Source: a virus. Taken from it: DNA of 64,000 nt. Position 1 is the stretch's first letter, and each line of letters opens with the position of its first letter. Shown one piece after another: positions 28,969 through 60,809 of this stretch. The stretch lies in the IMG/VR virus record IMGVR_UViG_3300028392_001993, positions 1-64,000 of that record. The stretch is one strand, 5' to 3'. The position numbers and the translations under genes are program-made. The notes beneath the pieces are model-generated. The model did not search any database. It saw nothing but the letters and a program-made list of their open reading frames with translations, and was not told the origin of the DNA.

Positions 28969-28997
28969 TAGACAACAGCCAACCATTGTGTTATAAT
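28969..28997 (+). promoter_or_regulatory. Sigma70-like promoter
   Basis: TAGACA-17 nt-TATAAT with TG extension. Confidence 0.65.
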
Positions 28998-45070: not shown

Positions 45071-45099
45071 TTGACATCAAATCAATTTTGTGGTATAAT
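45071..45099 (+). promoter_or_regulatory. Sigma70-like promoter for tmRNA
   Basis: TTGACA-17 nt-TATAAT. Confidence 0.8.
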
Positions 45100-45105
45100 A
45101 AATAC

Positions 45106-45442
45106 TTGAACAGCGTAAACTGTTACTGAGAAAAGGATTCAAGACCCGGGGGCAGTGCCCGGCAGGTCCACCATAAGCATACTTAAATCTCTACAAAACC
45201 GAAAGGTTGGGATCAGGGCTGGTACACCGGATTACTCTAGGGAAACCTATAAGTGCGGATAGACCATAGTATGCTTTTGATGGGCCTGACACAGGATCGA
45301 TTGGGTCAAGAGTACAAGTAATGGCGCTCGGTAGGCGATGACCGTTAATCAAGCAAAACAAGTATCTGCAAACGATGATACATACCTCTTAGCCGCAAAC
45401 GCCTAAGAGCGAGGCAGTTATGCCTTGTAACCAAAAATAGCA
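45106..45442 (+). ncRNA. ssrA: Circularly permuted (two-piece) tmRNA
   Basis: T arm and CAGGTCC-A-CCA (ends 45173) precede GGGCCTG (45282), pairing with G3.U70; tag frame 45368-45406 ANDDTYLLAANA*. Outer ends approximate. Confidence 0.85.
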
Positions 45443-45464
45443 ATAGGGACTTCGGTCCCTATTT

Positions 45465-46079: not shown

Positions 46080-46130
46080 AACTTTATTTATGCTTTCGTA
46101 GCCTAATATACCTCGTAACAGAAACCACCA

Positions 46131-46152
46131 AACCCGCTTCGGCGGGTTTTTT
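46131..46152 (+). terminator. Intrinsic terminator
   Basis: AACCCGC-TTCG-GCGGGTT followed by T-run. Confidence 0.85.
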
Positions 46153-46526: not shown

Positions 46527-46550
46527 AACCCGCTTCGGCGGGTTTCTCTT
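46527..46550 (+). terminator. Intrinsic terminator identical to 46131
   Basis: AACCCGCTTCGGCGGGTTT then TCTCTT. Confidence 0.8.
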
Positions 46551-46601: not shown

Positions 46602-46766
46602 ATGCAACATGCTATCAAATGTGACAATTGGGGAAAACCCGGCAAAAATGAAGTGGTGAGATTCATGCCTGTTAACTTGGCCAGGTTTAGAAACTGCCCA
46701 GACTGTGATCGTAAACGAATCACTGCTTGCAAAGATCCTGCTTGCAATCGAACCCGAAAGCCTTGA
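46602..46766 (+). CDS. Small Cys-rich protein (54 aa, not in ORF track)
   Basis: AAGGAG RBS; CPDC, C..PAC. Confidence 0.45.
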   Translation: MQHAIKCDNWGKPGKNEVVRFMPVNLARFRNCPDCDRKRITACKDPACNRTRKP

Positions 46767-46926
46767 CTCTTATACAATTCTCATATATAATACACTTATG
46801 AAACAAACAACTACAATCGTTACAATCGTTCGCTCAGAACATGAGTGGGATTGCCATTGGGGGCTTTGCCTGTAATACGAAAGTACTACCCTGCAAAGAC
46901 CCTCCACTTCGGAGGGTTTTCTTTTT
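46763..46926 (+). promoter_or_regulatory. Promoter, 25-aa leader ORF (46798-46875) and attenuator
   Basis: TTGACT-17-TATAAT; MKQTTTIVTIVRSEHEWDCHWGLCL*; terminator ACCCTCC/GGAGGGT + T-run; competing helix 46860-46869/46893-46902. Confidence 0.6.
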
Positions 46927-46931
46927 AGTGC

Positions 46932-46960: not shown

Positions 46961-47046
46961 AGAACTTAACAAAGCAACAAAGTAGATCGATACTAGTTGT
47001 AACAGATCTTTAAAAATCGTATTTCATTTAGTCCTGGTAACAGGGA

Positions 47047-47271
47047 CTATATGAGAACACATTAGGGTTACCAGACCCGTTAGAGGCATTGGTAGAAGTG
47101 AATTGACACCGGCGGGTGTCCACTTGCTACCAGTCATGAAGCCGGCTCTCTACTGTAAAAAGTAGATCCAGAAAAGCGGCGGATCGTCTGGCAGTAATGA
47201 CCGTGGTGACTTGGTCTCGCAAGCCAAGCAGAACGAGATCCACAACGGTTCCCAAATGTTTTTTCATATGG
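47047..47271 (+). ncRNA. Stem-clamped structured RNA, unit 1 (unassigned)
   Basis: 17-nt arms 47047-47063/47255-47271 enclose about 190 nt with several hairpins. Confidence 0.6.
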
Positions 47272-47345
47272 TGGGTTCATCTAGAGGCCTAGGATAGTGC
47301 CCTTTCACGGCATTCACACCGGTTCGAATCCGGTACCCACTACCA
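47270..47345 (+). tRNA. tRNA-Glu(TTC)
   Basis: GTGCC-CTTTCAC-GGCAT arm; ACCGG/CCGGT T stem; CCA. Confidence 0.9.
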
Positions 47346-47785: not shown

Positions 47786-47860
47786 GGTCTGATAGTATAT
47801 CGGTTAGTATCCCACACTGTCACTGTGGGGAGACGGGTTCGATTCCCGTTCAGACCGCCA
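47786..47860 (+). tRNA. tRNA-Asp(GTC)
   Basis: CCACA-CTGTCAC-TGTGG arm; GGTCTGA/TCAGACC; CCA. Confidence 0.9.
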
Positions 47861-48442: not shown

Positions 48443-49645
48443 TTATCCGTTACGGGCAATCCAATCAGCCCAGAGCGCATGCCACTCTGGGAATACTTCA
48501 GCAAAACTTTCACTGCGGAGTTGGTCAAGTTTAGCATTATGATACCAAAACGATATTTGTTTTTCGTGGGTGTAATCCGGAGGAGTCCCCATCAAAAACT
48601 TAACAACTTCTCTAAATCGATCAATGGTTTTGAATTTTTCAGCCACTTTGAGTTTGAGTTCGTAAGGCATATATTGAATATTGTTGTGGGGTTCGTCTAA
48701 TACATAATTTTCAAAACTTATGGGCCATTTGCGTTTGAGCCCTTCGGCGTGTAGTTCATCCATGTCAAACACATTTAAAATAGTGGGACTGCAACGAATG
48801 TGTGTTTTTATGTTTGGATACGGGGCTACGTCTATTAGATACTTGTCAGTTACTGCTAGAACTTCGTCCCATTTGCTACCGTAACGTAAATAATCGTTTT
48901 TTGCCCCTACCCCATCAATACTGATAGCAAAATTAACCAGTTTGAATTCTTTGAAGTAGTCTACCAACTTAGGATCATAGATTGTGCCATTGGTATGTGT
49001 TCCGAGTATTTGATTCTTGGCGCCACCTGTACTGACTGCAGACTCTAGGATTTTGTAACTTAACGGAATCATCAATGGTTCGCCACCGTACAAGTCCCAA
49101 AATACCAGTTCTTTTTGCCACTCATCAAATGTGGCTTCAAGAGGTTTGTTATTTTTGTAGATAGTGGTATGAGGTTCCCATTTTTTTAACCAAATCTTAA
49201 ACGGTTTATCGTAGCCATCGTCCTTGTCAAATTCGTAGGCATCTTTGAACCACGATGTACTGGTAATTTCGTTGCAACTACGGCAGGCGTTGTTGCATTG
49301 TATGCCCGGTTTAATTATGATGACCCGGGGCTGATCTGGATGCGATTCAACATCAGCAAAGTCTAGATTTACTTGTTGCCGCATACTAACAACACCAATT
49401 TCCTCTTTCTGCCAACAACTATCACATTCTTTAATGCGTTCACCGTTTTCTAAATGTTGAACAAATTCTTGTCTATGCGGAGACTTCCACACCCGTTTAA
49501 GATCATCGTTAACATCAAACATATGATGATGTTCTGCTGTGGTATCTTTGTACCACCAGGTGCAAATCGGACAGGGACTGACCATGCCACTCATATCCAA
49601 CATAAGAGATAGTTCAGCAAGTTTACATTTGGTATCGTATTTCAT
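48443..49645 (-). CDS. Radical SAM protein with N-terminal SPASM-like Cys cluster
   Basis: C...L..G.V.PC; CNNACRSC; GGEPL; TNG; SIDG. Confidence 0.85.
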   Translation of the reverse strand: MKYDTKCKLAELSLMLDMSGMVSPCPICTWWYKDTTAEHHHMFDVNDDLKRVWKSPHRQEFVQHLENGERIKECDSCWQKEEIGVVSMRQQVNLDFADVESHPDQPRVIIIKPGIQCNNACRSCNEITSTSWFKDAYEFDKDDGYDKPFKIWLKKWEPHTTIYKNNKPLEATFDEWQKELVFWDLYGGEPLMIPLSYKILESAVSTGGAKNQILGTHTNGTIYDPKLVDYFKEFKLVNFAISIDGVGAKNDYLRYGSKWDEVLAVTDKYLIDVAPYPNIKTHIRCSPTILNVFDMDELHAEGLKRKWPISFENYVLDEPHNNIQYMPYELKLKVAEKFKTIDRFREVVKFLMGTPPDYTHEKQISFWYHNAKLDQLRSESFAEVFPEWHALWADWIARNG

Positions 49646-49748
49646 AACTATATTTAACGACACAACCTTTTGGTAATTTAATTAAAGTCATCCCCCCAAG
49701 GATGAGAAGTGCTATGACAAAAATCATCTGGTAAATATATCACGCAAC

Positions 49749-51704
49749 ATGACAGATTCTAAAAAACAAATTTTCGAAATTAAAACAGTTTCTGACAACG
49801 AGCCTGTGGTAATTGAAAATTCAATGGGCGAAAATTCGCCACATTTGGCCATACTAGAAACCATTGGTACTCTGAGTCGCGGTAGGCCTCAAAAAAATCT
49901 AGATCGAATAATTATCAATCCAGTTACAAAACAAACACGAGTAGCAATGGTATTGCTTCCTTATTGGTCCATACACCACGCACCGTATAATATTGCACGT
50001 CTGGTAGGTTTGGCAAAGGCTGCAGGATTTAGCAGTTGTGCATTTGACGTCAATGTGGAAACTTACAATTTAACAGACAAAAAAGAATTATGGCATTCAT
50101 ACCTGTCTTGGAAATGGGAACAGCCGGAATATTACTATGCAGATATACATCCGTTCATTGAATCTACTCTGTTAGATCAAATTGACAAGATTGTAGAATT
50201 CAAGCCAGATGTCATTGGATTTAGTATATACTATTGTAATAATGAGACTGTGGCCTGGGCGGTGCCAAAGATCAGAGAAAAGTTACCTAATGTAAAAATA
50301 ATAGTGGGCGGATCTCAAGTGATCCAAGGAAAACTTAAATATGCAGAATTATTTGATCACGTGGTCAAAGGTGAAGGAGAACAAGTGTTCCTTGACATCC
50401 TAGAGAAAATTGAAAACAAAACACCTATCTCTGAACGCTTTCTAAGTTATCCTAAAGATCAACGCATTGATCTAGATTCCATGCCGTGGCCAGACTACGC
50501 AGACTTTGACTTGAGTTTGTATCAGTATGGTGCTGCCGTAGGGTCAGAAATCAGTCGAGGGTGTATAGCAAAATGCGAGTACTGTATTGAAACACAATTT
50601 TGGCGTTATCGCGGCAGAGTTGCTACCACAGTAGTTGATGAAATTGAATATCAGTACAAAACATTTGGCGTTAGAGCCATACACTTTGTTGACAGTTTGG
50701 TCAATGGTAATTTAAAAGAGTTAAGAGCATTTGCACTCGGAGTAGTAGCAAAGGGCATGACTGACCTTGCATGGGCCGGTTATGCTCGATCCGACGGTCG
50801 AATGGATCTTGCATATCTGCAGGATTTAAAAAATGGTGGGTGTCACTTTTTAAATTTTGGAGTAGAGTCGGGTAGCAACAAGACACTTGCATTGATGAAG
50901 AAAAATGTCACCCGAGAAGAGATGGAACAAAATTTTAAGGATCTCAAAACAGTAGGCATTAACGCTTACAGTAATTGGATTGTTGGATTTCCCGGAGAGG
51001 AAATCGCCGACGTTGCAGACTCGTTGATTTTTTTATGGCGCACCAGAGATACTGCCATACGTCATTATAGTTTAAACTTATGTTACAACGAGCCGGGCAC
51101 TCCATTGGGAACCAATCCTGACAAGTTTAATATCAGTAGCACTGAGTGGGCCGGCAAATGGATCACTAAAGATTATCGCAATACCAATATACACCGACTG
51201 ATTAGATATAAATCTTTGTTAATATTCACCGCTCACATGCGTCGACATTTGGTTCGACCACACGAAGGTTGGGGGCTTGGGGGTATGGAACGTTACAATT
51301 TTGAAAATCACTACACGTTTTTGTACGATCCGAAGAATGCAAGAAATGTTATAGACTACGACGATTTTGATTACAACATTATAAAAATCAATGTCAATCC
51401 CGTGGCCGATAGTATGGTTAACGAAATATGGCCTTTGCTGAGAACTTTGTATCTTGCCTGGGGTGCATACGAGTTTAGTGTACGTTTTGATCAAGACGAG
51501 GATTTTAAAGAATTTGGAAATCAATTTGTTTTTTCGCCAACTTTTGAAGAAAAATTTAAATTCGATGGCAACGTTTGGTTTAAGATTGATGCCGCTGGCA
51601 ATTGGCAGGCCAAATTAGATTATGTATTTGATTCTGCTATTCCCAACTTGAACTTTGATCTACATTTTGATGAGACGGGAAATTGGGAAAGAATTTCCCG
51701 ATAG
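49749..51704 (+). CDS. B12-binding radical SAM protein
   Basis: IVGGSQ, GEGE, SRGCIAKCEYC, GVESGS, IVGFPGE. Confidence 0.9.
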   Translation: MTDSKKQIFEIKTVSDNEPVVIENSMGENSPHLAILETIGTLSRGRPQKNLDRIIINPVTKQTRVAMVLLPYWSIHHAPYNIARLVGLAKAAGFSSCAFDVNVETYNLTDKKELWHSYLSWKWEQPEYYYADIHPFIESTLLDQIDKIVEFKPDVIGFSIYYCNNETVAWAVPKIREKLPNVKIIVGGSQVIQGKLKYAELFDHVVKGEGEQVFLDILEKIENKTPISERFLSYPKDQRIDLDSMPWPDYADFDLSLYQYGAAVGSEISRGCIAKCEYCIETQFWRYRGRVATTVVDEIEYQYKTFGVRAIHFVDSLVNGNLKELRAFALGVVAKGMTDLAWAGYARSDGRMDLAYLQDLKNGGCHFLNFGVESGSNKTLALMKKNVTREEMEQNFKDLKTVGINAYSNWIVGFPGEEIADVADSLIFLWRTRDTAIRHYSLNLCYNEPGTPLGTNPDKFNISSTEWAGKWITKDYRNTNIHRLIRYKSLLIFTAHMRRHLVRPHEGWGLGGMERYNFENHYTFLYDPKNARNVIDYDDFDYNIIKINVNPVADSMVNEIWPLLRTLYLAWGAYEFSVRFDQDEDFKEFGNQFVFSPTFEEKFKFDGNVWFKIDAAGNWQAKLDYVFDSAIPNLNFDLHFDETGNWERISR

Positions 51705-55992: not shown

Positions 55993-56202
55993 TTGACACA
56001 CAAAGGTAAATAAACTATAATTGATACTATGAAAACGACACTTTGTTTATTGCAACCCAAGAATATGTTCAGTCAGACATCTGCCTGGTCACACGCCTAT
56101 GGTCGCTTGACAAGCATTCTAGGAGACACAGGGTCTTAAATAGTACGCAATCGTATCTTATTCAAAGACCCTGGAACTAAAAACTCCGGGGTTTTTCTTT
56201 TT
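55993..56202 (+). promoter_or_regulatory. Promoter, 36-aa leader ORF (56029-56139) and attenuator
   Basis: TTGACA-17-TATAAT; antiterminator CAGGGTCTT/AAGACCCTG (9 bp); terminator ACCCTGGA/TCCGGGGT + T-run. Confidence 0.6.
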
Positions 56203-58205: not shown

Positions 58206-58234
58206 TTGACACAACCGCACGTTAACTATATAAT
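58206..58234 (+). promoter_or_regulatory. Sigma70-like promoter
   Basis: TTGACA-17 nt-TATAAT, 9 nt before tRNA-Ser. Confidence 0.75.
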
Positions 58235-58242
58235 ACTATAAT

Positions 58243-58332
58243 GGAGACGTGGCCGAGTGGCCGATGGCACCGGATTACTAACCCGGCGAGGTAGCAATAC
58301 CTCCGTGAGTTCGAATCTCACCGTCTCCGCCA
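58243..58332 (+). tRNA. tRNA-Ser body with ACT anticodon
   Basis: Type II variable arm, G73, loop TTACTAA. Confidence 0.8.
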
Positions 58333-59339: not shown

Positions 59340-59606
59340 ATGGCTAAACTACTGATAGTTACCTGGATCCCAGGCAAAGACGAATCTAAGAATCAAAAGT
59401 CAGAAACAGCAAGAAATATCAAACTAGGTATGATGTGTGTTAAGGGCAAAGTAAATCCTTTTGATTTTAAAGTAACAGACAAATTTACCACACAACGACG
59501 TTGGCGGGATCAAGAATCAGTAGACGAGTACATCAAATTTCTCTACGAATTAGAAACAAGATATGGTGGCCGGTTGGTCAAAATTCAAGTCAAAGATGTT
59601 GACTAA
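59340..59606 (+). CDS. Hypothetical protein
   Basis: AAGGA RBS; 88 aa. Confidence 0.6.
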   Translation: MAKLLIVTWIPGKDESKNQKSETARNIKLGMMCVKGKVNPFDFKVTDKFTTQRRWRDQESVDEYIKFLYELETRYGGRLVKIQVKDVD

Positions 59607-59627
59607 ACTGTGCAATCACAGTATAAT
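59599..59627 (+). promoter_or_regulatory. Sigma70-like promoter
   Basis: TTGACT-17 nt-TATAAT before tRNA-Gly. Confidence 0.7.
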
Positions 59628-59635
59628 AAAAATAT

Positions 59636-59709
59636 GCGGAGTTGGCATATTGGTTGTGTCCCAGCCTTCCAAGCTGGTTAAACGAGTTCGATTCTCGTAC
59701 TCCGCTCCA
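59636..59709 (+). tRNA. tRNA-Gly(TCC)
   Basis: CCAGC-CTTCCAA-GCTGG arm; T73; CCA. Confidence 0.9.
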
Positions 59710-60717: not shown

Positions 60718-60809
60718 GGAAGATGATGCAGTGGCGTTGGTGCCGCGACTGGCCTTGAAAACCAGGTTCTCAGAAATGGGATGGGGTTCGACTCCTCCGT
60801 CTTCCGCCA
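60718..60809 (+). tRNA. tRNA-Ser(TGA)
   Basis: Loop CTTGAAA; long variable arm; G73; CCA. Confidence 0.85.

Follow-up and report, generated by a model that had tools for sequence, protein, structure and literature searches.

The window analysed here covers the first 64 kb of one 178,197-bp contig and has 23 tRNA genes and one permuted tmRNA gene. The closest relatives of this virus record are viral and freshwater metagenome contigs. The tmRNA gene (45071-45463; Rfam tmRNA_permuted, 108 bits) has a perfect promoter (12/12) with an extended -10 TG. Two terminators, at 46130-46149 and 46527-46544, have in common a GC stem with a TTCG loop, and the first of them is flanked on each side by A and T tracts and scores in both orientations. 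Next is a conserved, Cys-rich gene of 54 codons (46602-46766), and behind it lies the element described in our work. The whole design is compact (about 165 bp) and combines a promoter (P1), a short leader frame and two overlapping RNA hairpins, the second of which is an intrinsic terminator. A second promoter (P2), a structured non-coding RNA and the genes for tRNA-Glu and tRNA-Asp come after it (Table 1). The region 46763-46930 gave no Rfam match at E-values up to 1.

Table 1. Features of the element and of the tRNA unit behind it (positions in the window).
Feature	Position	Strand	Remarks
Promoter P1	46763-46791	+	TTGACT (46763-46768), 17-nt spacer, TATAAT (46786-46791); 11/12 consensus matches
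Leader frame, putatively leaderless	46798-46875	+	25 codons (46798-46872), TAA (46873-46875); A of the ATG is the predicted +1
In-frame hairpin	46823-46853	+	-11.8 kcal/mol; candidate pause hairpin, weak support
Candidate control codons Glu14-His15-Glu16-Trp17-Asp18	46837-46851	+	GAA CAT GAG TGG GAT
Antiterminator hairpin	46860-46902	+	Lower stem 46860-46869 x 46893-46902, 9/10 paired, G.A mismatch 46863:46899
Antiterminator upper stem	46872-46878 x 46883-46889	+	GAAA loop; holds the stop codon (46873-46875)
Intrinsic terminator	46896-46926	+	Stem 46896-46905 x 46911-46920, loop ACTTC, T tract 46917-46926
Promoter P2	46932-46960	+	TAGACC-17-TACAAT, directly 3' of the terminator
Structured non-coding RNA	47040-47270	+	Between P2 and tRNA-Glu; fold z-score -4.4, no Rfam match
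tRNA-Glu (UUC)	47270-47345	+	First tRNA of the unit
tRNA-Asp (GUC)	47786-47860	+	Second tRNA of the unit

P1 is one of only two sites of its quality within the 8 kb that were scanned, and its -35 box overlaps the stop codon of the 54-codon gene. The ATG of the leader frame is located 6 nt past the -10 box and has no Shine-Dalgarno sequence; given this distance, the A of the ATG is the expected transcription start. Genome-wide scanning led to 31 promoters with at least 11/12 consensus matches. In five of them an ATG located 5-8 nt past the -10 box opens a frame of 77-283 codons (window positions 28969, 36742 and 41093, and genome positions 66915 and 74969). One gene of this type, with its ATG 6 nt past a consensus -10 box, encodes a protein of Pfam family DUF2061 (E-value = 2e-15). 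Judged from these sequences, the phage seems to use leaderless mRNAs regularly. Nevertheless, the ATG alone proves little, because 'AT' at +1/+2 is common to these promoters generally; in two tRNA promoters an ATG stands at this place as well, its G being base 1 of the tRNA.

Relatives of the element were collected with three sequence patterns. The first required the -10 box together with the ATG and the AAAGACCC motif, the second fixed only both strands of the antiterminator lower stem, and the third, run on metagenomes, fixed only the stretch from the -10 box through codon 4. Together they returned 54 different leaders of the present type from uncultured freshwater phages, as well as three leaders of a sister type, which is represented in the window at 55993-56202. 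Chance matches to the patterns came without a frame, without a terminator and without tRNAs. A 2.2-kb stretch around the element, searched against 50,697 GenBank phage records, yielded tRNA matches only and no relative, and the upstream 107-codon gene, used as a query, led to a locus without the element. In three contigs the 54-codon gene and P1 precede unrelated cargo, so the leader is not bound to the 54-codon gene. The promoter-proximal cargo behind this gene and P1 appears to be swapped as a module; unrelated genes replace the leader in L005, L006 and L007.

The promoter and the 25-codon ORF of the preliminary description are both present in the window and have counterparts throughout the family. 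P1 was found in every relative (9-12/12 matches, spacing of 17-18 nt, 5-6 nt to the ATG), and the frame is open in all 54, with a length of 25-32 codons. The same holds for the sets obtained with the third and the second pattern. All 32 different sequences of the third pattern have an open frame (25-31 codons), and all 12 true matches of the second pattern have an open frame and an ATG 5-6 nt past the -10 box, though this pattern did not demand one. The leaderless ATG, together with a stop codon within the top of the competing hairpin, is kept in 54/54 relatives. The CTTTG core of the helix is located 66, 75, 78, 81, 84, 87 or 93 nt from the ATG, and all of these distances are multiples of three. 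The sole exception is one lineage (L041, L073, L076 and L092) with a 1-nt deletion five codons before the frame end, and even there the new frame still stops in the hairpin loop. In that lineage the frame ends at a second TAA located 7 nt further on, and the stop codons of the two frames overlap (GGTAAGTAA) in the loop. The other two reading frames are free of stop codons in 0/54 and 6/54 relatives. Translation of the leader frame is supported indirectly, by the ATG that coincides with the predicted +1 even in the relatives of the second pattern and by the other putatively leaderless genes of the phage.

The peptide itself drifts. Among 22 close variants we counted 10 synonymous and 24 non-synonymous codon variants, a synonymous share of 29% compared with the 23% expected from random single changes, and these counts gave no sign of selection on the protein. 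Since the leader peptide evolves almost neutrally, it is unlikely to be a working protein. The hairpin within the frame was considered as a pause hairpin. Its pairing is kept in one relative through two G.U changes, but the in-frame structure is not universal (mean z -1.2), and the family as a whole lends this role no support.

Concerning the end of the frame, the preliminary description had proposed a pair of mutually exclusive helices, namely an antiterminator of 9 of 10 bp and a terminator. Both are confirmed in the window, and they have 46896-46902 in common. The upper stem of the antiterminator was absent from that description. The terminator has the most stem pairs (10) among the 11 terminator-like sites of the region and is present in 54/54 relatives. 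The RNAalifold consensus contains two covarying terminator pairs, UA/GC in 40/12 and CG/GC in 36/16 sequences. Run on the whole alignment, RNAalifold returned the terminator only, so the pairs of the antiterminator were counted on a specified structure. Across the 54 relatives 85.4% of the antiterminator cells are paired, compared with 35-53% in controls that shift the partner strand by 1-3 columns, which places the antiterminator beyond chance. Covariation is modest: six pairs changed on both sides, against 3.8 ± 0.9 in shuffles, a value that 20 of 500 shuffles also attained. Both strands of the lower stem hardly vary, even at third codon positions, and what this stem displays is therefore conservation rather than covariation. 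A compensatory change at the innermost pair 46869:46893 (C-G to U-A) was also considered and set aside as weak, as this pair is mismatched (C.A) in most close variants.

Folding of the full-length leader RNA favours the terminator form (-36.7 kcal/mol, compared with -33.7 kcal/mol with the antiterminator forced), whereas a transcript ending before the 3' arm of the terminator folds into the antiterminator. The choice between the two would thus be kinetic, as is also seen in known attenuators. Hairpin energies across 22 representatives range from -11 to -22 kcal/mol for the antiterminator and from -13 to -17 kcal/mol for the terminator. We then masked the part of each RNA that a ribosome would cover. 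Free nascent RNA formed the antiterminator in 20/22 representatives, while with the stop codon in the ribosomal A site the terminator arm was left unpaired in 16/22. With the ribosome on the last Glu codon the antiterminator was again formed in 20/22; with the ribosome on the last acidic codon, which is usually Asp, only a partial antiterminator was formed in most of the 22. With the ribosome stalled on Asp18, the first G residues of the antiterminator would be masked. We found neither a conserved anti-antiterminator nor a conserved pause hairpin, and the upstream sequence never pairs with the 5' strand of the antiterminator in the folds. It follows that a leader that is not translated is predicted to read through, and that the timing would depend on fast leaderless initiation.

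Downstream of the terminator, the second promoter pointed out by the preliminary description was recovered in all relatives. It begins 4-10 nt past the T tract and its spacing is always 17 nt, although the spacer sequence is variable. Because P2 is universal, read-through from P1 can only add to a basal tRNA level, in agreement with the earlier remark that read-through would only modulate output. The genes that would be regulated are the structured RNA, tRNA-Glu and tRNA-Asp, and not genes for amino-acid biosynthesis or synthetases. In all relatives with enough flanking sequence tRNA-Glu (UUC) is the first tRNA or an early one, usually followed by tRNA-Asp (GUC), and tRNA-Tyr and tRNA-Leu are often present.

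The codons that a ribosome would read shortly before it masks the helix may correspond to these tRNAs. The preliminary description had Trp, Cys and His in mind as the sensed codons, but the Cys-His-Trp stretch after Asp18 is replaced in close relatives. In contrast, codons 14-18 are nearly invariant in the 22 close variants, the exceptions being one Glu-to-Ala change, one Glu-to-Asp change and three synonymous His changes. Glu16 is located 17 nt and Asp18 11 nt before the 5' strand of the antiterminator. Despite differing frame lengths, the last Glu codon is 17 nt from the helix in 16/22 representatives and 14 nt from it in three. For the last acidic codon, which is mostly Asp, this distance is 11 nt in 17/22. 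Across 19 leader types the eight codons before the helix are enriched in Glu (3.7-fold), Asp (2.35-fold), Tyr (2.3-fold), Cys and Arg, and GAA/GAG, GAT/GAC and CGT/CGC alternate among the types. The leader of this window has only three Glu/Asp codons in 25, which is not above an average protein. The Glu/Asp signal is therefore one of clustering and conservation and not a codon run as in the trp or his leaders. On these grounds Glu and Asp are more likely to be the sensed codons than Trp, Cys or His.

The variable residues of the leaders point in the same direction. In one type, the six codons before the point of ribosome masking encode Asp-Leu-Tyr-Ala-Tyr-Glu and the operon comprises tRNAs for Leu, Leu, Glu, Asp and Tyr. 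When the variable leader residues (Tyr, Leu and others, with Glu and Asp set aside) were compared with the tRNAs of the operon, the score was 1.18 against 0.78 ± 0.18 for shuffled sets (p = 0.010; permutation test over 14 types, kinship ignored). All members of the family share one origin, hence the link of the Glu/Asp codons to tRNA-Glu and tRNA-Asp represents essentially one evolutionary event.

Taken together, these data favour the interpretation, to which we assign a probability of roughly 0.6, that the element is a translation-coupled transcription attenuator heading the phage tRNA-Glu/tRNA-Asp unit. The attenuator proposed by the preliminary description is supported by the conservation of the frame, the terminator, P2 and tRNA-Glu in the relatives and by the ribosome-mask folding. 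According to this interpretation, P1 would start the RNA at the A of the ATG, making the 25-codon leader a leaderless mRNA. A ribosome that reaches the stop codon would hold the 5' strand of the antiterminator and leave its 3' strand free; the terminator could then form and the P1 transcript would end as an RNA of about 130 nt. With no ribosome on the leader, or with one stalled upstream, the antiterminator would form first and take 46896-46902 away from the terminator. The likeliest stall sites would be the two conserved Glu codons, which precede the hairpin by 17 and 23 nt. With the antiterminator in place, RNA polymerase would read past P2 into the genes of the structured RNA, tRNA-Glu and tRNA-Asp. 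Given P2, the tRNAs are made in any case; P2 would set their basal level and the stronger P1 would add to it when Glu and Asp codons are decoded slowly, the net result being a feedback loop on tRNA supply. In this interpretation the leader frame would be translated, termination would depend on its translation, and the signal would be the supply of Glu- and Asp-tRNA. Probably, then, the phage makes more tRNA-Glu and tRNA-Asp when ribosomes read Glu and Asp codons slowly.

Leader-peptide attenuators are well known from enterobacteria (trpL, hisL, thrL, leuL and pheL, and pheM of the pheST operon). Like them, the phage element has a promoter-proximal mini-frame, an intrinsic terminator and an antiterminator whose 5' strand a ribosome at the frame end would cover, and the codons of its frame may correspond to what the operon supplies. 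Unlike them, it would regulate tRNA genes instead of amino-acid or synthetase genes, its mRNA would be leaderless, it is encoded by a phage, its control codons form a short mixed cluster and not a run, and a second promoter lies behind the terminator. In addition, no counterpart of the region 1:2 anti-antiterminator or pause hairpin was found here, and untranslated RNA should read through. The geometry, called classical by the preliminary description, departs from the classical case in the putatively leaderless mRNA and in that no conserved anti-antiterminator or pause hairpin was recognised. In mycobacteria, leaderless polycysteine short ORFs have been described as cysteine-responsive attenuators (bioRxiv 10.1101/834739). 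What they have in common with the proposed phage attenuator is a short leaderless frame that opens the operon transcript and, by being translated, governs the expression of what lies behind it; the host group, the codons and the targets are different.

T-box riboswitches resemble the element in that a choice between terminator and antiterminator reports the tRNA status for one amino acid. However, a T-box is an untranslated RNA that recognises uncharged tRNA by direct binding, and its targets are synthetase or amino-acid genes. No Rfam T-box match was obtained here.

Among the other explanations, the one that fares best keeps the attenuator and changes its signal. The acidic motif could act through the nascent peptide, by intrinsic destabilisation of the ribosome as in MgtL, so that translation would abort before the stop codon and read-through would report the general state of the ribosomes or Mg2+ rather than tRNA supply. 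The translating ribosome is destabilised when Asp, Glu and Pro cluster near the start of the chain, within the N-terminal 20-30 positions (bioRxiv 10.1101/2021.02.02.429294). The leader motif falls within this range: it occupies residues 14-26, and no chain is longer than 32 residues. Moreover, in many relatives Pro stands right behind the acidic cluster, several reach 4-6 Asp/Glu/Pro residues per ten, and MgtL itself sets a precedent for control of a downstream gene by ribosome destabilisation. The MgtL leader of mgtA is likewise a short peptide with an early acidic motif, the incomplete translation of which raises downstream expression; its motif, though, follows directly after Met1 and senses Mg2+, while the one described here is weaker, is placed at residues 14-18 and precedes matching tRNA genes (bioRxiv 10.1101/2021.02.02.429294). 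The leader of this window has three acidic residues, non-adjacent and with no Pro, and falls short of the published threshold of more than three Asp/Glu/Pro per ten-residue window in the first 20-30 residues (bioRxiv 10.1101/2021.02.02.429294). Additionally, the motif always precedes tRNA-Glu and usually tRNA-Asp genes, and the Tyr and Leu content of the leaders tracks the tRNAs of the operon, which a charge effect does not predict. We therefore regard a nascent-peptide signal as unlikely, and tRNA supply as the better candidate.

It is more doubtful still that the unit stands by itself, as a small gene or small RNA between a promoter and a terminator of its own, in which the hairpin serves as a stability or translation element, the tRNAs are not regulated by the unit and P2 transcribes them. 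P2 is indeed universal and adjoins the terminator, termination would yield a discrete RNA of about 130 nt, and in this window the full-length RNA is thermodynamically most stable in the terminator form. Against this, the near-neutral evolution of the peptide makes a working protein unlikely, and the hairpin always overlaps the terminator arm and always contains the stop codon. Furthermore, the unit was recovered only at the head of a tRNA-Glu block, and matches without tRNAs also lacked the frame and the terminator.

We see very little room for an RNA switch that works without translation, with a ligand, a protein or, as in a T-box, a tRNA as its binding partner and with the open frame being incidental. 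The strands of the lower stem, nearly invariant even at synonymous codon positions, would suit such a switch. However, a frame kept over seven lengths is hard to explain without translation, and the ATG at +1 was retained also in the members that were fetched without demanding it. Upstream of the motif the sequence varies too much to form a ligand pocket, and the Rfam search at E-values up to 1 returned no match. Finally, a precursor peptide of a ribosomally made natural product, matured by nearby radical SAM enzymes, is scarcely credible: two radical SAM proteins are encoded 1.5-3 kb downstream and the peptide is rich in Cys, Trp and His, but homologues of the enzymes occur in only 5/101 fetched loci, some of them chance matches without the leader, and at unrelated positions, tRNA genes run gapless for 6 kb behind the leader in some relatives, and the Cys-His-Trp stretch is not conserved. 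The link was therefore rejected.

Returning to the translation-coupled attenuator, a broader and more tentative proposal, to which we give slightly less than even odds, is that phages run codon-specific feedback on their own tRNA genes. A leaderless frame written in the matching codons would report a shortage of tRNA, arising for example from host anticodon nucleases or starvation, and would open P1 onto the tRNA operon. This genome would then hold at least two such sensors, one for Glu and Asp and one at the main tRNA cluster (55993-56202), and many large phages would share the design. The usual view of phage tRNA genes is that they add a constant amount to the host pool or serve as a bypass of host defences that cleave tRNAs, and to our knowledge the control of their output has been little studied. 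Our literature search found no description of leader-peptide control of tRNA genes. If the proposal is true, a phage gauges the decoding speed of particular codons and responds by transcribing the matching tRNA genes, and leader-peptide attenuation, known for amino-acid and synthetase operons, extends to the tRNA genes themselves. It would also offer a simple readout for host defences that target tRNAs.

The sister element that heads the main tRNA cluster (55993-56202) was confirmed to have the same architecture. It consists of a promoter with 12/12 consensus matches, an ATG 7 nt past the -10 box and a frame of 36 codons, whose stop codon is located within a helix pairing with the AAAGACCC motif before the terminator. 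Its leader contains Ser-Ala-Trp-Ser-His-Ala-Tyr, and the cluster in relatives begins with Trp, Ala, Tyr and Ser.

Regarding the surroundings of the two elements, in the radical SAM protein encoded at 48446-49663 (minus strand) the SPASM domain (residues 13-84) lies on the N-terminal side of the radical SAM core (residues 123-274), which is an unusual order. A second, B12-binding radical SAM protein is encoded at 49749-51701, and both are missing from most related loci. A weak tRNA-Sec-like match (36 bits, under the Rfam threshold) is located at 60718-60805, between tRNA-Cys and tRNA-Val. A tRNA-Ser was called at 58243-58332 with the unusual anticodon ACT. Lastly, at two consensus promoters, 58206-58243 for tRNA-Ser and 59599-59636 for tRNA-Gly, just 2 nt separate the predicted +1 from the mature 5' end of the tRNA, so the precursors of these two tRNAs would have almost no 5' leader.
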